From positions 158 to 64,157 of the forward strand of contig CAZAVY010000004.1 in the NCBI GenBank assembly GCA_964488685.1: a DNA stretch of 64,000 nt, written 5' to 3'. Shown here piece after piece: positions 24,072 to 35,442 of the stretch. Every line of letters starts with the position of its first letter. Position 1 is the stretch's first letter. The notes beneath the pieces were generated by a model. That model saw only the letters and a program-made list of their open reading frames with translations, was not told the origin of the DNA and ran no database searches. A program made the position numbers and the translations under genes. Source of the DNA: an uncultured Gammaproteobacteria bacterium (GTDB taxonomy: Bacteria; Pseudomonadota; Gammaproteobacteria; GCA-001735895).

Positions 24072-24782
24072 ATGAAAACTGCGTACTTAACGGTTTGTTC
24101 GCTGGCGGTGTTATTGCTGTCAAGTCCTGTAATGGCGGCTAAATATAAGGAATCCGGTGTCACCGATGGCGGCTCTCTAACGGGCATAATCAGTTACAAA
24201 GGTCGAGTCAAAACAAAAACAGTCTTACCCACCAAGGATAAAAGTGTCTGCGGTGGTCCGCGTAAGCAAAAATTAATTCAAGTCAATGCCGATGGGGCGG
24301 TGAAGAATTCCATCGTCTTCCTCAAAAAAGTTGCTGCCGGCAAGTCCTGGCCAAAATTAACAGAAAAACCCAGTATCACTAATATCGATTGTATATTTGA
24401 ACCGCGTGTACAGGTCGTGCGGCGGGGCAAAATTGATATTTACAATAAGGATCCCGTATTACACAACACCCATGGCTACTACGGAAAGCGCACTGCTTTC
24501 AATGTAGCAATGCCATTGCAGGATTCGAAGGTTAGCAAGTTGTTACGATCTGCTGGTGAAGTGCGCGTCGATTGCGATGCACATGGTTGGATGTTGGGGT
24601 GGATTTATGTGGTAGACAACCCATACTACACCATGACCGGAGATGATGGGAGGTTCTCCATTGCAGATGTACCACCGGGCGACTACACAATGGTAGTTTG
24701 GCAGGAGCAGCTCGGCATCACCGAAGTATCAGTAAATGTGAAGGCGAATGGGTCAACCAGCACAGATATTGAGTTGAAATAA
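24072..24782 (+). CDS. secreted amicyanin-like cupredoxin embedded in a carboxypeptidase-regulatory-like beta sandwich
   Basis: Signal peptide. Putative type-1 Cu ligands LHNTH ... CDAHGWM (H, C-x2-H-x2-M spacing as in amicyanin). Flanked by GSLTGIISYKG and DGRFSIADVPPGDYTMVVW segments. Paralog at 53289. Confidence 0.7.
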   Translation: MKTAYLTVCSLAVLLLSSPVMAAKYKESGVTDGGSLTGIISYKGRVKTKTVLPTKDKSVCGGPRKQKLIQVNADGAVKNSIVFLKKVAAGKSWPKLTEKPSITNIDCIFEPRVQVVRRGKIDIYNKDPVLHNTHGYYGKRTAFNVAMPLQDSKVSKLLRSAGEVRVDCDAHGWMLGWIYVVDNPYYTMTGDDGRFSIADVPPGDYTMVVWQEQLGITEVSVNVKANGSTSTDIELK

Positions 24783-24852: not shown

Positions 24853-25953
24853 ATGAAAAAAAATGATAAAGAAGAAGATTTGAAAGAAGGTAGGCTAGAT
24901 TTATCACGTCGCACCTTTCTGCATAAATCGATAGTTGCGGGGGCTGCTGTTGCATCAGCGAGCTTATTCGAAACCATAAGTACCATGAATGTAGCAAATG
25001 CGGCCGGGGAGGCATTCAGCTTCGCATGGGTATCTGATACGCATTTATATCCGAAGAAACTGAATACCCGTTTTGTCGAAAAGGCGGCACGTGCGTTTGC
25101 TGAAGTTGAGGCACAAAGTAAAAATCTGGATTTCATGATATTCGGCGGTGATTTGGCGCAGAAGGGTGATCCGGTGGAATTGCGCGAAGGGGCAGAAATG
25201 CTTAATGAGTTAAAGATCAAGCAATATTTTATTCCCGGAGAGCATGACTGGTATCTCGATTTGGGTGAAACCTGGAATAGAAGATTTGGTGAATCGCCCT
25301 GGACATTTGATCACAAGGGCGTGCGTTTTATTGGCCTTAACACCGTCGGCCAGGCGCCTGATTACTGGTCTGCCAAGGGGATGACGGCAAAAGAACGCAT
25401 GGGCCATATGGAGGCACTCGATGGCTCTCAAGCGGGGCCATGGGCCGGATTAGGCAAAAAACAATTAGAGTGGTTGTCTAGTACGATGGCTGGGGTATCA
25501 AAAAAGGCTCCGATTATCATTTTAAGTCACAACCCGTTGTATGAGTACTTCGCGCCCTGGAATTTCTGGGTTCGCGACTGGCGTGAAGTGCATGAAATAA
25601 TTGCTCCCTATTCCAACGTTACCAATATTCATGGACATACCCACCAGGTGTTGTATCACGAAGAGGGCACTACGCGTTTCATCGGTCAGCTTGCAACCTC
25701 ATGGCCATGGCCTTATGCGCCCGAAGGCGTGCCGGCACTTACCAGGCCCATGATTCGAGTCGACCCGGGCGACCCCTTTGATGGCGTTGGCTGGAGCAAG
25801 TTGAGTTCGTCATCGTCCGGGGTTGAACAAGAGTACAAGATGTGGCGAGAGGAAGTGTTCGCGAGCGCAGATGTAGATTCTGGTACGGGTGATAACCGAA
25901 ATCAGAAACTGTCTCCGCGCATAGTTGATCGTGACTGGAACTACCAAAAATAG
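24853..25953 (+). CDS. Tat-exported calcineurin-like metallophosphoesterase
   Basis: Twin-arginine signal SRRTFLHKSIVAGAAVASA. Motifs WVSDTHL, GGDLAQKGD, GEHDW, SHNPL, HGHTHQ. Confidence 0.8.
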   Translation: MKKNDKEEDLKEGRLDLSRRTFLHKSIVAGAAVASASLFETISTMNVANAAGEAFSFAWVSDTHLYPKKLNTRFVEKAARAFAEVEAQSKNLDFMIFGGDLAQKGDPVELREGAEMLNELKIKQYFIPGEHDWYLDLGETWNRRFGESPWTFDHKGVRFIGLNTVGQAPDYWSAKGMTAKERMGHMEALDGSQAGPWAGLGKKQLEWLSSTMAGVSKKAPIIILSHNPLYEYFAPWNFWVRDWREVHEIIAPYSNVTNIHGHTHQVLYHEEGTTRFIGQLATSWPWPYAPEGVPALTRPMIRVDPGDPFDGVGWSKLSSSSSGVEQEYKMWREEVFASADVDSGTGDNRNQKLSPRIVDRDWNYQK

Positions 25954-25959
25954 GAGGAT

Positions 25960-26433
25960 ATGAAAATGAAAAAATTAAATATAAAGCTACACCTGCTAAG
26001 TGGTGCCACCTGCCTGCTATCGCTTCCTTTAATTATCATGCTGGCGACTCAACCCGCGGTAGCACATAAGGAAGCGCATGATTTGGCGACGCTAAAGGCG
26101 TTCGATGATGCCTTTATGGATCAAGTGAAACTGGGAGACAGTCTGTTTCACGGCGACCCTGTTGCGCAAAAGGAAACGGGAGTGAACCTGTCAGATACGG
26201 GAATGGCCTGTGCCATGTGTCATCCTTTCGCTTCGGATATTCATCCACATGAATTTCCAAAATTCCAGGAACAGATGAGCGAATTTGCGACACTTCGTGA
26301 CATGGTAAACTGGTGTATCGAAAAACCTAACGAAGGCCAGGTGATCGATGTCAACAGTGATGCAATGAAGGCTTTAGAGGCCTACATGGTATGGTCGAAT
26401 CGGGGTTCTAAGTTAGATCCGGGTAGACACTAG
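25960..26433 (+). CDS. periplasmic monoheme c-type cytochrome
   Basis: AGGAGG RBS, signal peptide, single CAMCH heme motif. Confidence 0.75.
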   Translation: MKMKKLNIKLHLLSGATCLLSLPLIIMLATQPAVAHKEAHDLATLKAFDDAFMDQVKLGDSLFHGDPVAQKETGVNLSDTGMACAMCHPFASDIHPHEFPKFQEQMSEFATLRDMVNWCIEKPNEGQVIDVNSDAMKALEAYMVWSNRGSKLDPGRH

Positions 26434-26643: not shown

Positions 26644-27606
26644 TTGAAAAAACTGATCACTAGAGTTTCACTGGTCGTAATCGCAGGTTTGATCGTAACG
26701 ACGGCCAGTGTCGCGTTGTTGGAAGGAGAAGAATCAACAACCGAGACCAGCTACAAGTCTTTTTTCGATTATCCTGCCAATGTTGAAAATATAGCACCCG
26801 TGGGTCATTCGCCACCGGTTACGCCTCGGTTTATCGAGCACGGGCGGTGGGTATATCGCGGCCTGTGCATCGGCTGCCACGGTGTCAATGGCGATGGTAA
26901 TGGTGCCGTTTGGGAGTTAGCCGATCAATATTCGCCCAAGCACAAATTGCCCCGAAAGCCAAGGGATTTTACCCAGGCTGTGTTCAAGTTGCGCTCAACA
27001 CCGAGCGGTTCGTTTCCAACAGATGCTGATCTATTCAAGTCTTTATCGCGTGGTTTGATAGCAGATTCGGATATGCCGGCTTTCAAATTTCTACCCGAGC
27101 GAGACCGATGGGCCGTAATCGCCTATATCAAAACCTTGTCGGAACGCTGGGTAGAAGAAGAAGAGTATCAGGAAGAGCCGATATTTATTGGTGATCCACC
27201 CGTTCCTGATCTGAATATGATTGCGGAAGGGAAGAAAGTATACGCCTTGATGAAATGCGAGGAATGCCATGGATTACTCGGCAAGGGCGATGGACCCTCG
27301 GCATCGGACTTGGAAGACGATGATGGCCTTGCGATACTGCCGCGTGATTTTGGCGATGCCAGTCAGTTTGTCGGAGCAAGTGACCCGCGCGGCGTCTTCC
27401 AGACATTTAACACCGGGCTGGATGGCACGCCAATGCCCTCCTTTTCAGATTTTCTCGATGCAGAGCAAAGCTGGCAGCTGGTATGGTATGTAACCTCGCT
27501 AAGATCTGAATGGAGCCTGGAAGCAACCCGCGAAGCAATGCTGCAACAGCGAGATCAACCCACCAATAGCGGTGTAGATGTTAATTCATCTGCTACAACC
27601 GATTAG
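26644..27606 (+). CDS. periplasmic diheme c-type cytochrome
   Basis: Two heme motifs, CIGCHGVNGDGNG and CEECHGLLGKGDG. FKLRSTPSGSFPTDADLF segment. Paralog at 52393. TTG start. Confidence 0.8.
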   Translation: MKKLITRVSLVVIAGLIVTTASVALLEGEESTTETSYKSFFDYPANVENIAPVGHSPPVTPRFIEHGRWVYRGLCIGCHGVNGDGNGAVWELADQYSPKHKLPRKPRDFTQAVFKLRSTPSGSFPTDADLFKSLSRGLIADSDMPAFKFLPERDRWAVIAYIKTLSERWVEEEEYQEEPIFIGDPPVPDLNMIAEGKKVYALMKCEECHGLLGKGDGPSASDLEDDDGLAILPRDFGDASQFVGASDPRGVFQTFNTGLDGTPMPSFSDFLDAEQSWQLVWYVTSLRSEWSLEATREAMLQQRDQPTNSGVDVNSSATTD

Positions 27607-27607
27607 T

Positions 27608-28078
27608 ATGCTTGCGAGGCAGTCCCGTATGACAATGGCCATTGTTTTATCCGGTATAGCATTCGCGGGTATGTGTGCCTGGATGGTGAACAAGCTCCTG
27701 CCGGTGCGTGACACGACCGTGGCTGCGATGGATATCGCCTCACCGATTAACTATCAAAAGCTTGGACAGGGCTCTAACCTAGCCAATCTTGAAAGAGGGC
27801 GTAGTTACTATGCTCAGCTTTGCATGTCCTGCCACGGCGGCAGCGGAGATGGGAATGGTGAATGGGCCTATCGAGTGACACCCCGACCTGCAGACCTGAG
27901 AAGCCCGCGTGCCAGGGGTCGTAGCGATGAACAGTTGTTCAGCATAATTAGCGAGGGACTGCCCGGTACTTCTATGGTGGGAATGAAAGCTAAGCTTTCT
28001 ACAACCCAGCGCTGGCAAATTGTAGAATATTTACGTCATCTGATGTTTGGTGAGGAGCAACTCACAGCCAATGACTAG
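27608..28078 (+). CDS. membrane-anchored monoheme c-type cytochrome
   Basis: TM anchor MTMAIVLSGIAFAGMCAWMV; CMSCHGGSGDGNG; Met-ligand region LPGTSMVGM. Start uncertain (27578, 27608 or 27629). Confidence 0.75.
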   Translation: MLARQSRMTMAIVLSGIAFAGMCAWMVNKLLPVRDTTVAAMDIASPINYQKLGQGSNLANLERGRSYYAQLCMSCHGGSGDGNGEWAYRVTPRPADLRSPRARGRSDEQLFSIISEGLPGTSMVGMKAKLSTTQRWQIVEYLRHLMFGEEQLTAND

Positions 28079-28655
28079 TGTCAGCAAAATAGCTCAACTT
28101 CCCAATGCGGTTTCTGAAACACGCCAGAAAATTGTAGCAAGTCAACCACGCGTGATAGTTTACCTGCTGTTAATGTCGGTCATTAATTTTCTTATCGGCA
28201 CCATTCAAGGTGTTCTGCAAACCTTTCCCGGGATAGCCCAGTGGATACGGGAAGCCGGACCGGCGGGGCACTTGATCGACCCGCTGGCACACGCGCACAT
28301 TAATCTCGTCGGTGGCGTGACTATGGGTATGATGGGGTTGTTTTATTTCGTATTACCTCAGCTGGTTCAACGGCCAATGTATAGCCCGCTTTTAGCAAGC
28401 GTCTCATTCTGGTTTTCCGCCATTGGTGTGATCAGTTTTTTCAGTTCGCTGGTTATACTAGGCATCATCGAAGGCCGTTTAGTTCATGGTGGGATGACCT
28501 ACGCTCAGGCGCTTGAAACTGTCGGTCCGATACATCATATCCTGATAGTGACTGCGGCCTTCATTATGGGATTCGGATACTGGGCATTTATCAGCAATAT
28601 ATTGCTGACTATTTTCAAGAAACGAACGGGAGAAGAACATGCATCGCCTGCTTAA
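28071..28655 (+). CDS. stand-alone homolog of the C-terminal five TM helices of CcoN (heme-copper oxidase subunit I)
   Basis: Aligns by eye to aa 310-465 of the 471-aa CcoN-like protein: IQGVLQTFPGIAQWI/IQGAFQQTRALNWYI, LAHAHINLVGG/VAHAHLALLGF, FYFVLPQLVQRPMYS/IYYGLPKLLKRELYS. ATG 28071 overlaps the upstream stop. Confidence 0.7.
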   Translation: MTSVSKIAQLPNAVSETRQKIVASQPRVIVYLLLMSVINFLIGTIQGVLQTFPGIAQWIREAGPAGHLIDPLAHAHINLVGGVTMGMMGLFYFVLPQLVQRPMYSPLLASVSFWFSAIGVISFFSSLVILGIIEGRLVHGGMTYAQALETVGPIHHILIVTAAFIMGFGYWAFISNILLTIFKKRTGEEHASPA

Positions 28656-28857
28656 TTTTCTTTACAGCGGTTTTATGGTTGGAATCGGGCTTGGAACCGT
28701 ATTTCAGTTGGCATTGTTACCGCTTTTTGGCATGCGTAGCCATGACGAGTGGACTGGATTGCTGGTTTGGGGTTTTGCAATCAGCATCGGCACCGGTGTT
28801 GTCTCGGCGATAAGTTTCTGGGTGATGAATACAATTATGGTTCGCCAGGGTAAGTAG
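28639..28857 (+). CDS. small two-TM membrane protein
   Basis: 72 aa with two hydrophobic helices. Overlaps the upstream gene by 17 nt and is co-directional with the oxidase cluster. Confidence 0.45.
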   Translation: MHRLLNFLYSGFMVGIGLGTVFQLALLPLFGMRSHDEWTGLLVWGFAISIGTGVVSAISFWVMNTIMVRQGK

Positions 28858-32010: not shown

Positions 32011-32175
32011 ATGATGTCAGGCGATGTGCTCATTCCCTATATTTGGGCTGCCACTGGTTTGGTGAGTTTGATAGCGATAGTGCTGATGATTTTCTGGGCC
32101 AGTAAACATGGTCAGTTCGATGAAGATATCAAGGATCAAATGTTTACCGCTGGAGACGATGACCGATTTGAGTGA
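32011..32175 (+). CDS. ccoS: cbb3-type oxidase maturation protein CcoS/FixS (54 aa, below the ORF-track cutoff)
   Basis: Hand translation: MMSGDVLIPYIWAATGLVSLIAIVLMIFWASKHGQFDEDIKDQMFTAGDDDRFE. It has the CcoS pattern: one TM segment, W-A-x-K-x-GQFDD/E, and a C-terminal DDD. Confidence 0.7.
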   Translation: MMSGDVLIPYIWAATGLVSLIAIVLMIFWASKHGQFDEDIKDQMFTAGDDDRFE

Positions 32176-32846: not shown

Positions 32847-33386
32847 ATGAGTTTAACGGTTTCCAAGTTTATGTCAATACAACGGCTAAAGGCTCCAGTA
32901 ATCTTATTATTCGCTACTTTTTTATTAGTTTCATGTAGCGATACAACTGGCAGTTTTAAGCCCAAACTCGGCGTCGGTGATGTCGCGCCAAAAAGCAATA
33001 ACCGTGTCGTGGCGGATGCGGACCAATGGTATCAGGTATCCACCATGGACAGTAAAGTGCCATTGTATCGTTGGAGAATTGCCGATTTGATTGAACAAAA
33101 TAAACCATTTTTGGTAGTTTTCGGTACGCCGCAACACTGTACCATGTGCGTCGATCAAATTGTGCGAGTGGCGGTAATGGAAGAACAATACGGCGAGCAG
33201 TTCGCCTTTGTCCATATCGACGGTTACAAGGACAATGAGGTCTGGGTAGAATGGGGCGTCAAGGGCGAGCCCTGGACTTTTATCGTCAATGCCAGGGGAA
33301 TAATACAAAACGTTTTCCCGGGTCAAACCGAGTTGGCTCTACTGAAAAACGAAATGCAACAGCTAGTTGAATTGTCGGATTCATAA
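32847..33386 (+). CDS. thioredoxin-fold lipoprotein (TlpA/redoxin-like)
   Basis: Lipobox LLVSC; FLVVFGTPQHCTMCVDQIVRV with a CxxC. Confidence 0.6.
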   Translation: MSLTVSKFMSIQRLKAPVILLFATFLLVSCSDTTGSFKPKLGVGDVAPKSNNRVVADADQWYQVSTMDSKVPLYRWRIADLIEQNKPFLVVFGTPQHCTMCVDQIVRVAVMEEQYGEQFAFVHIDGYKDNEVWVEWGVKGEPWTFIVNARGIIQNVFPGQTELALLKNEMQQLVELSDS

Positions 33387-34230: not shown

Positions 34231-35442
34231 GTGATACTGCGACAGCAACTGGTCGGCATAATTTTATCGGTATGCATTTCAAGCGCAGTTTATCTACCCG
34301 TTGCTTTTGCTAGTGCGAAACCAGGGCCTTTAATGCTCGTTGGTGCCGTATTACGGCACAATCAATCAGATATATGGAAGCGCATATATCAGTTAGCGGG
34401 TGGTAATCTCGCTGATTTCGTTGTAGTCGCGAGCGCTAGTCCCCGGCCCAGGTTGTATGGTGGGTTTGCAGTTCGAGGTTTACAGCGTTACGGAGGTTTT
34501 GTCGATCTGTTGCCATTGGCGACACAGCTGGACCAATTTGATATCGATTATCGAGAGGCCGTCGTTGACGCAGAAATCATCGATAAAACCCGTCGATCAA
34601 ATGCGGTGTTTTTTGTCGGCGGTGCCCCGCAGCGCCTTGCAAGCGTACTTTTTAATGCGGATGGCTCCAACACCCCTCTGGCATCGGCAATTCAGGAGAT
34701 GCATGCCAGGGGTGGAGTGATCATCGGTGGCATTCCGGCTATGGCAGGTGTTGCCACCAACACCAACCCGATGACAGCACTGGAGCAGGGACGTATCGCA
34801 GAAAAGGATTTATTTCCCGGCCTTAATTTGCTGGCAAATGACTGGTATCTGGATCAACATTTTTTTAGCGGAGGGCGTTTCGCACAAAGTATAATTGCAA
34901 TGCGCCAGCTTAATAAAACTTTCGGTCTCGGAATAGGAGTAAACACGGCCGCTGCTATCGATGCGGAACAACTCGAAGTTATCGGCGAACAAGGGGTCGT
35001 GCTAATTGATCTGTCCCTCGCAACATCGGCCACCGGCATCAATGGATTTACCCTCAAAGGTGCTCGCTTAAGTTATCTTGACCATGGTGATAGACTTGAT
35101 ATGGTTTCAAGGCAGATTACTCCCCACACTTACAAACTGGAAGAGTTCGTAATCGAACCGGGCGCTAATGGCTTTCGCCAGCCGGACGAAGAACAATACA
35201 CTGTCGGAAATATGTTCTCCCCTGGCAGCTTGTTAGACTTAATGATTACTTCGATAGAAGGAAAGCATAAACAGGTTGCAGGTTTGGCGATGAAAGAAAG
35301 CAGGGGCAATCAGGAAAGTGGCGGCTATTTGTTTAAATTTTATACCGGGCCGGACAGCATTGGATGGTTGACCACGCTATTTGGAGGTCAGCGTTGGACA
35401 ATTCTGAACATATACCTCGACATCGTCCCGCTTGAAAAATAA
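34231..35442 (+). CDS. secreted cyanophycinase-like (peptidase S51 / class I GATase-like) protein, catalytic Ser apparently missing
   Basis: Signal peptide. VFFVGGAPQRLASVLF and GGVIIGGIPAMAGV parallel the S51 motifs GGNQxRL and G-T-S-A-G-A, but with Pro at the Ser position. GTG start. Confidence 0.45.
   Translation: MILRQQLVGIILSVCISSAVYLPVAFASAKPGPLMLVGAVLRHNQSDIWKRIYQLAGGNLADFVVVASASPRPRLYGGFAVRGLQRYGGFVDLLPLATQLDQFDIDYREAVVDAEIIDKTRRSNAVFFVGGAPQRLASVLFNADGSNTPLASAIQEMHARGGVIIGGIPAMAGVATNTNPMTALEQGRIAEKDLFPGLNLLANDWYLDQHFFSGGRFAQSIIAMRQLNKTFGLGIGVNTAAAIDAEQLEVIGEQGVVLIDLSLATSATGINGFTLKGARLSYLDHGDRLDMVSRQITPHTYKLEEFVIEPGANGFRQPDEEQYTVGNMFSPGSLLDLMITSIEGKHKQVAGLAMKESRGNQESGGYLFKFYTGPDSIGWLTTLFGGQRWTILNIYLDIVPLEK

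Follow-up and report, generated by a model that had tools for sequence, protein, structure and literature searches.

A small gene, here called mini-CcoN, was examined in a 64,000-nucleotide stretch of DNA from an uncultured Gammaproteobacteria bacterium (contig CAZAVY010000004.1 of assembly GCA_964488685.1); the whole stretch is termed the window. Heme-copper oxidases (HCOs) are the enzymes of aerobic respiration and nitric oxide (NO) reduction, and their 12-helix core is thought to stem from the triplication of a four-helix protein. Subunit I consists of three pseudo-symmetric four-helix units, and the helices of mini-CcoN correspond to precisely one of them, helices 9–12. The gene belongs to a real family under strong purifying selection. 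In Chloroflexi three mini units are joined in one chain, which in a structural model builds an HCO-like 12-helix body. With a modest lean in favour of this reading over those weighed against it below, mini-CcoN is taken to be an oxidase-like heme protein that forms a homotrimer and acts together with two membrane-anchored c-type cytochromes.

Homology to oxidase subunit I

The mini-CcoN protein was matched by Pfam COX1 (PF00115) with an E value of 2e-15 and 57 bits (gathering threshold 34.8), and this was its sole Pfam match at E<=1. The match spanned profile positions 306–420 of 436, the final quarter to third of the model. The NCBIfam ccoN model (TIGR00780) aligned at positions 306–463 of 474 with 40.4 bits, below its equivalog cut-off of 583.15. 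By BLASTP the protein was 33% identical over 110 residues (E 4e-13) to the CcoN-like protein of 471 residues encoded nearby, with residues 52–161 of mini-CcoN paired with residues 317–420 and AHAH placed on AHAH. Weaker alignments were obtained to the helix-6 His region (E 0.011) and the helix-2 His region (E 0.06) of the same protein. A profile of the mini family matched P. stutzeri-type CcoN chains in the PDB at all three internal units, with 33–34 bits at helices 9–12, 23 at the helix-6 unit and 4–7 at the helix-2 unit; its PDB matches cover CcoN residues 305–450.

A preliminary description of this DNA had aligned the protein by eye, at low identity and along its whole length, with about residues 310–465 of the CcoN-like neighbour, AHAH included. 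BLASTP bears that alignment out for residues 317–420, AHAH included, and the comparison with COX1 and CcoN profiles that it had proposed as a check found HCO homology. It had further described the product as the last five helices of subunit I with the H-x-H heme ligands. The homology to the last third and the H-x-H pair hold, but the AlphaFold2 (AF2) model has four long helices (residues 26–51, 71–99, 106–139 and 144–182) with a short loop helix at 53–62, and the count of five was rejected.

Pfam and NCBIfam scans of mini-CcoN yielded only COX1/ccoN-type models, and membership of the known cbb3 assembly factor families (CcoS/FixS, CcoG/FixG, CcoH, CcoI) was not found. With 194 residues, four helices and COX1 alone in the Pfam scan, the protein also differs from the NnrS-type three-unit HCO homologs.

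The ATG of mini-CcoN sits within ATGACTAG, in which the preceding gene, for a cytochrome c (27578–28078), has its stop, so that the two genes overlap by 8 nucleotides. All 28 orthologs aligned start at the position of this ATG and none at the upstream TTG. The motif GGTGAGGAG lies 13 nucleotides upstream of the ATG, at 28049–28057, and is likely the Shine-Dalgarno motif for the start at 28071. The 3' end of mini-CcoN overlaps the start of the next gene, for a transmembrane (TM) protein of 72 residues (28639–28857), by 17 nucleotides. The intact open reading frame (ORF) overlapping the upstream cytochrome gene, from which translational coupling had been proposed, was thus confirmed.

Family size, conservation and selection

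Homologs were collected by a word-indexed homolog search, a pattern scan of a one-genome-per-species collection and a hidden Markov model (HMM) scan of 1.8 billion representatives. The word-indexed search gave 256 mini homologs, the best 120 of which were 154–211 residues long (nearly all 185–200) with 58–77% identity. The pattern scan gave 438 matching stretches, and the HMM scan 50 clusters at E<=1e-30 and 163 at E<=1e-10. In the source annotation the homologs are named 'cbb3-type cytochrome c oxidase subunit I'. Carriers were found in Gammaproteobacteria (Arenicellales, Granulosicoccaceae, Chromatiales), Burkholderiales, Nitrospirota, Zetaproteobacteria and Chloroflexi, and many of them are chemolithotrophs. 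At every locus with a single unit the homolog is a separate gene.

About 60 columns were invariant across 29 mini sequences. The invariant residues include G66-H67-L-I-D-P-L-A-H74-A-H76, N78-L-V-G-G, E134-G135 and H155, and the family motif reads G-H-L-I-D-P-L-A-H-A-H-x-N-L-V-G-G. H74 and H76, in TM helix 2 (TM2), were present in 29/29 and match the helix-10 H-x-H of subunit I; H67 lies in a loop and H155 at the start of TM4. The median pairwise ratio of nonsynonymous to synonymous substitution rates (dN/dS) was 0.07 over 69 mini pairs with unsaturated dS, and the reading frame was intact at every locus examined.

That the gene holds only the last third of subunit I and adjoins a complete copy might suggest a functionless pseudogene or duplication remnant of ccoN. 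This explanation is refuted for practical purposes, with hardly any probability left to it: homologs are many and occur in four phyla, some 60 columns are invariant, dN/dS is low and the frames are intact. A duplication scar is excluded on the same grounds. The statement in the preliminary description that this is not a recent duplication scar agrees with these data, and the disrupted frames that would have marked relatives as pseudogene fragments were absent from the loci examined.

Fused triple repeats in Chloroflexi

Chloroflexi carry one ORF of about 656 codons in which three mini units are followed by a C-terminal TM tail (L057:9365-11350; also loci L058-L064 and L069, and proteins P0121-P0231). 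About 110 such triple-unit proteins of 625–1119 residues were found, annotated as "cbb3-type cytochrome c oxidase subunit I"; that of L073 (Anaerolineales) and some other matches are about 1060–1120 residues long. A reading of the tblastn matches as three tandem mini genes was rejected when ORF inspection showed a single fused ORF. A CcoN-FixO pair and a FixS-like gene are encoded a few kb upstream of the fused gene. The second repeat of the fusion and the window protein share about 50% identity, and the motif G-H-x-I-D-P-x-A-H-A-H-x-N is common to both.

The AF2 model of the L057 fusion had a predicted local distance difference test score (pLDDT) of 85.5 and a predicted template modelling score (pTM) of 0.81. 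In Foldseek it matched whole subunit I chains, with TM-scores of 0.72 to CcoN (3mk7_A and 9g6b_A) and of 0.74 and 0.75 to NorB (3o0r_B and 4xyd_A). The alignments spanned 513–545 columns, and 49/49 matches at E<1e-3 were HCO subunit I.

A tree of single units was built, in which P0210 and P0223 are represented by R2 and R3 (two motif matches each). The fusion repeats nest inside the mini clade (support 97/86), and the fusions therefore go back to another round of triplication, independent of the first, in which a mini-type gene was the starting point. Units 1 and 2 of real oxidases form well-supported clades of their own, from which the mini clade (96/93) is separate. Unit 3, the mini clade and a second paralog found in Nitrospirota (mini2, described below) form a polytomy; the tree therefore gives no order between minis having split off C-family CcoN and minis being older.

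Histidine pattern and proposed cofactor sites

The two His of the H-x-H motif are called position 1 and position 2. In real oxidases the low-spin heme is held by position 1 of helix 2 and position 2 of helix 10, position 1 of helix 10 binds the high-spin heme, and position 2 of helix 6 binds the copper CuB. The His at helix 2 position 1, helix 6 position 2 and both positions of helix 10 were checked here.

The pattern of the fusions was scored in 30 proteins and was uniform. Repeat 1 kept only position 2 (H80; position 1 was H, Q or L), repeat 2 kept both positions (H252, H254), and repeat 3 kept only position 1 (H418; position 2 was an invariant Gln), each in 30/30. Further His were conserved in repeat 1 (H71 in 28/30, H159 in 25/30) and repeat 2 (H333 in 29/30), and none in repeat 3. 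The totals per repeat of 3, 3 and 1 are reminiscent of the 3, 2 and 1 in units 2, 3 and 1 of real oxidases.

This sequence pattern fits cofactor sites placed between adjacent units, with one of the three sites lost. If position 2 of unit i pairs with position 1 of unit i+1, the decay of a site leaves a one-sided loss in each of two repeats. If each unit held a cofactor of its own, both His of one repeat would vanish together, unlike what was observed. Sites in real HCOs likewise combine position 2 from one unit with position 1 from the unit that follows, an arrangement that the fusions mirror.

Gene context across phyla

The 51 proteobacterial loci comprised Gammaproteobacteria (Arenicellales, Granulosicoccaceae, Chromatiales, Thiohalobacter) and Burkholderiales. 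All 51 had the same order: diheme cytochrome c, monoheme cytochrome c, mini, the 72-residue TM protein (tm72), CcoN, FixO, FixP_N-like protein, a further small TM protein (tm68), cytochrome c, (FixS-like gene), cytochrome c, thioredoxin-like protein and a small TM protein. The monoheme cytochrome c gene was always immediately upstream of mini, and a cupredoxin-like protein, a twin-arginine translocation (Tat) metallophosphoesterase and a SoxA/TsdA-like cytochrome were often encoded further upstream. Identity to the window proteins was 83–91% for CcoN and only 54–72% for mini.

Six Nitrospirota/Leptospirillia loci had the order FixS-like gene, anchored cytochrome c, mini, FGE-sulfatase, second mini paralog and thioredoxin-like gene, with a FixG-like gene farther on. 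The second four-helix paralog, mini2, is divergent, with an AHGH motif and a Pfam COX1 match of E 1e-14 (L067:11636-12139; also L065, L066 and L070-L072), and the gene with the FGE-sulfatase domain stands between it and the first mini. A heterotrimer of mini and mini2 is possible in these organisms.

Twelve Zetaproteobacteria loci were found. In 6/12 the order was a divergent DUF420 gene, mini, "Bact_hydrolase", cytochrome c genes and a FixG-like gene, with FGE-, cytochrome c- and FixS-like genes 7–9 kb away; the remaining 6/12 had only mini and Bact_hydrolase, some with DUF420. The pairing of mini with this cytoplasmic 173-residue protein (PF20603) was thus seen in 12/12 (for example L080:10549-11070, where a 4-nucleotide overlap couples the two genes translationally); the gene has no counterpart in the window.

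A full-length CcoN gene was not found within 10 kb of mini in the six Nitrospirota and twelve Zetaproteobacteria loci. The constant co-occurrence of orthologs with this oxidase type, which the preliminary description had proposed to check, holds in Proteobacteria and Chloroflexi and fails in the other two groups, and the proposition that mini always stands beside a complete subunit was rejected.

Proposed model and alternatives

In the model of a homotrimer working with cytochromes, three mini-CcoN copies would form a 12-helix ring resembling subunit I. Self-assembly is preferred to a role as helper of the neighbouring oxidase because the three fused Chloroflexi units fold into a subunit-I-like 12-helix body. 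Three equivalent cofactor sites, most likely for b-type hemes, would lie between the protomers. The axial pair of each would be His76 of protomer i and His74 of protomer i+1, after the manner of the low-spin heme of real oxidases, whose axial ligands are the helix-10 and helix-2 His. H67 and H155, which would lie on the periplasmic side, may contact heme propionates or metal. The diheme and monoheme anchored cytochromes (analogous to CcoP and CcoO), tm72 and mini-CcoN would make up one module, that is, a second, cbb3-like membrane cytochrome module without the CuB motif beside the divergent CcoN/FixO oxidase. Such a module would probably take electrons from periplasmic donors and then either relay them to the oxidase or itself react with a small molecule. 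Electron relay or storage is judged likelier than O2 reduction because the TM2 His all appear paired and the helix-7 HH and cross-link Tyr are missing; from its residues, catalysis by mini-CcoN is doubtful. A copper-containing centre is possible, being left open by the FixS-, FixG-, thioredoxin- and FGE-like neighbours.

Several points weigh against this model. We infer the three-copy ring, and with it the trimerisation and His–His geometry of the window protein, by analogy with the fused relative, and heme binding by mini-CcoN is a prediction. The helix-7 HH and cross-linked Tyr of CuB sites have no equivalent in the protein. The AF2 monomer model was of moderate confidence (pLDDT 74.5), and in Foldseek it gave weak CcoN matches (E 3e-3, query TM-score (TMq) 0.45–0.55) mixed with unrelated helical bundles. 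In Proteobacteria and Chloroflexi the mini-type gene always accompanies a full-length C-family oxidase, as an accessory subunit might, and across the phyla its neighbours are of maturation type (FixS-like, FixG/CcoG-like, thioredoxin-like, FGE-like, DUF420), as would suit an assembly role.

An assembly or cofactor-delivery factor is accordingly the alternative to be taken most seriously, although we consider it unlikely. Here mini-CcoN would mimic CcoN helices 9–12, transiently hold heme b and/or copper, and pass it to the nascent C-family oxidase together with FixS/CcoS-, CcoG- and thioredoxin-like factors. It retains the exact heme-ligand pair of CcoN, and such factors are encoded nearby: FixS-like, FGE-sulfatase, thioredoxin-like and FixG-like genes in Nitrospirota, FixG-like and DUF420 genes in Zetaproteobacteria with FGE- and FixS-like ORFs 7–9 kb away, and a FixS-like ORF (32011–32175) and a thioredoxin-like gene (32847–33386) in the window. 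These maturation genes could equally serve the mini complex itself, however, and the protein has no homology to known cbb3 assembly factors, only COX1/ccoN models matching it. A chaperone is moreover not expected to triplicate and fuse into a confidently modelled 12-helix body with a site-specific His pattern, and mini is translationally coupled to structural c-type cytochromes. A bolder version of the homotrimer, also unlikely in our estimation, makes mini-CcoN the protomer of a free-standing heme or heme-copper oxidoreductase. This enzyme would itself be redox-active or catalytic (O2 or NO chemistry, or a dedicated electron relay), would have FixS-, CcoG- and thioredoxin-type factors devoted to its maturation, and would be the living counterpart of the pre-triplication HCO ancestor. 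In the Chloroflexi fusions, the triplication, fusion and site specialisation behind modern oxidases would in that case have taken place once more.

Mini-CcoN could instead be an extra structural subunit of the adjacent CcoN/FixO oxidase, a monomer docked on the 12-helix core in the manner of CcoH or CcoQ and possibly bringing an additional heme for electron entry. Its position two genes upstream of CcoN in a tight co-directional cluster at 51/51 proteobacterial loci speaks for this, as does the fused version lying in the same cluster as CcoN-FixO in Chloroflexi. We nevertheless find it rather improbable: the eighteen loci of Nitrospirota and Zetaproteobacteria have no full-length CcoN within 10 kb, the gap in identity between mini (54–72%) and CcoN (83–91%) is not what one commonly sees in a closely packed core subunit, and a lone four-helix unit holds only half of each His pair. 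The roles first offered in the preliminary description, a heme-handling or assembly factor or an extra subunit, are still possible to these degrees; they are not the best supported, given the CcoN-less loci and the 12-helix fusion of Chloroflexi. Pei and colleagues (2014) reportedly suggested a small-molecule detoxifying or sensing role for many proteins of HCO homology. A heme protein that detoxifies or senses NO or O2 and has no connection with the oxidase next to it would suit a family present in nitrite and iron oxidisers, which are exposed to NO. Yet ORF, Pfam and NCBIfam scans found no denitrification genes in the immediate cluster of the window, and the conserved TM2 His all appear paired, so that bis-His sites would leave no open coordination position; this role is very improbable.

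Gene cluster of the window

The features of the cluster are listed in Table 1. The genome that contains the window (3.03 Mb, 99% complete) had three COX1-type matches, namely an A-family subunit I, the CcoN-like gene and mini. The A-family gene is on another contig (G000 contig 29, 29115-30443; 530-residue open frame, 540 bits). A canonical ccoNOQP was not present among the COX1-type matches of this genome.

Table 1. Features of the mini-CcoN cluster in the window (position 1 is the first nucleotide of the window)
Feature	Position	Strand	Remarks
Diheme cytochrome c, 320 aa, hydrophobic N-terminus	26644..27606	+	Overlaps start of the 166-aa cytochrome gene
Membrane-anchored monoheme cytochrome c, 166 aa	27578..28078	+	Stop overlaps mini-CcoN start by 8 nt
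Alternative TTG start of mini-CcoN, 8 extra codons	28047..28070	+	Probably unused; would give 202 aa
mini-CcoN, single HCO evolutionary unit, 194 aa	28071..28655	+	ATG start; 4 TM helices, equivalent to helices 9–12
Two-TM protein, 72 aa (tm72)	28639..28857	+	61–85% identical across proteobacterial loci
CcoN-like, full-length divergent C-family HCO subunit I, 471 aa	28898..30313	+	H-x-H: helix 2 HVH, helix 6 HAH, helix 10 HAH
FixO/CcoO-like monoheme cytochrome c subunit, 173 aa	30340..30861	+	
FixP_N-like membrane protein, 133 aa	30898..31299	+	Without heme-binding motif
FixS/CcoS-like ORF, 54 aa	32011..32175	+	Weak Pfam FixS match, E 3.6e-4, below cut-off
Membrane-anchored monoheme cytochrome c, 170 aa	32108..32620	+	Homolog directly upstream of mini in Nitrospirota
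Thioredoxin-like protein, H-C-x-x-C motif, 179 aa	32847..33386	+	Homolog downstream of the mini/mini2 pair in Nitrospirota

The CcoN-like protein has H-x-H in all three units (RPVHVH, WWHAHN and AHAHL), a feature shared by 49/49 orthologs. In the remaining C-family sequences of the comparison, helix 2 (HTN/HLN) and helix 6 (YGHN/FAHN/YAHN) each carry one His only. Under the inter-unit geometry, the two additional His of the CcoN-like protein (helix 2 position 2 and helix 6 position 1) would face the third, normally empty pseudo-symmetric site, and a third cofactor site in this protein is conceivable.

The FixS-like ORF overlaps the longest reading of the cytochrome c gene that follows it. Homologs of this small ORF precede the anchored cytochrome c in Nitrospirota, and one occurs in the Chloroflexi cluster (L057:7209-7634, FixS E 3e-6).

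Upstream, positions 24072–24782 encode a secreted protein of 236 residues with the cupredoxin-type ligand pattern HNTH ... C-D-A-H-G-W-M, the C-terminal part of which matches CarboxypepD_reg and fn3_3. The diheme cytochrome c of several relatives includes a fused copy of this domain, and these proteins are 585–590 residues long. Positions 24853–26433 encode a Tat-signal metallophosphoesterase (366 residues) followed by a short SoxA/TsdA-like cytochrome c (157 residues). This pair is upstream in most relatives and absent from the Chromatiales/Thiohalobacter-type loci L007, L010, L011 and L014; from this patchy retention it appears to be an accessory donor module. In relatives (L003:14823-16567, L004:14565-16600) the cluster is followed by genes for a CbbQ/NorQ-type AAA+ protein and a VWA (NorD-like) protein. 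In the window neither gene was seen immediately after the cluster, and the next large ORF (34231–35442) had only a weak Peptidase_S51 match.

Comparison with known systems

Literature searches found no experimental work on this kind of protein, and nothing specific on iron-oxidiser clusters or on cbb3 with metallophosphoesterase and SoxA. Pei and colleagues are said to have described in 2014 independent four-helix "HCOH" proteins that are closest to TM helices 9–12, carry conserved His and were predicted to rebuild the 12-helix fold as homo- or heterotrimers. Three-unit HCOH proteins with 12 TM helices, such as NnrS, were reportedly included. To our knowledge the single-unit proteins have had no experimental characterisation. 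Set beside these, mini-CcoN is alike in its similarity to helices 9–12, its four TM helices, its independent gene and its conserved His. It differs in being close enough to C-family CcoN to pass the Pfam COX1 threshold, and in lying within a conserved respiratory cluster with c-type cytochromes of its own. The 2014 analysis (Pei, Li, Kinch & Grishin 2014, Protein Sci 23:1220) is cited in PMC4602095. According to the latter, the YgdD and MAPEG homotrimers resemble the HCO core. MAPEG and YgdD/DUF423 thus share with mini-CcoN the four-helix protomer and, if the homotrimer model holds, the quaternary form; sequence similarity was not detected here, and they lack the H-x-H pair and have other chemistry.

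In Ca. Tenderia electrophaga a "truncated CcoN cytochrome c oxidase" has been noted twice (ALP51724.1 and ALP51744.1; bioRxiv 10.1101/2022.05.06.490989). The two genes lie in a conserved region of about 26 genes that also encodes CcoN, CcoO, thioredoxin and CcoG. The region is described there as "a sort of alternative complex IV", and the truncated genes receive neither a structural nor a mechanistic interpretation. The local order of diheme cytochrome, monoheme cytochrome and truncated CcoN is that of the window, and orthology is suggested by gene order alone.

This kind of protein had thus already been predicted computationally (Pei et al. 2014), and the gene had been noticed in Ca. Tenderia. 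New here are the context across phyla, the secondary triplication in Chloroflexi, the high-confidence whole-subunit fold match and the asymmetric His pattern, which favours sites between units. A natural, strongly conserved four-helix version, together with fused descendants in which one symmetric site has decayed, makes the triplication hypothesis directly testable, and the mini family marks a widespread respiratory module without prior characterisation. It offers a good experimental handle on HCO evolution and no conceptual surprise to specialists aware of the 2014 analysis. The idea itself is not new; what counts here is a specific candidate with good support and a His pattern able to discriminate.

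With CcoN itself (3mk7_A, 9g6b_A) mini-CcoN is homologous over helices 9–12 and keeps the H345-x-H347 pair and the loop His (the P. stutzeri H337 position). Its predicted topology is the same, with the His pair near the periplasmic side. It has 4 of the 12 helices, and the helix-2 His, helix-6 His, helix-7 HH and cross-link Tyr are absent. The Chloroflexi triple-repeat proteins are built from the same four-helix unit as mini-CcoN; in them three units and a TM tail form one chain, with two of the three inter-unit His pairs left.

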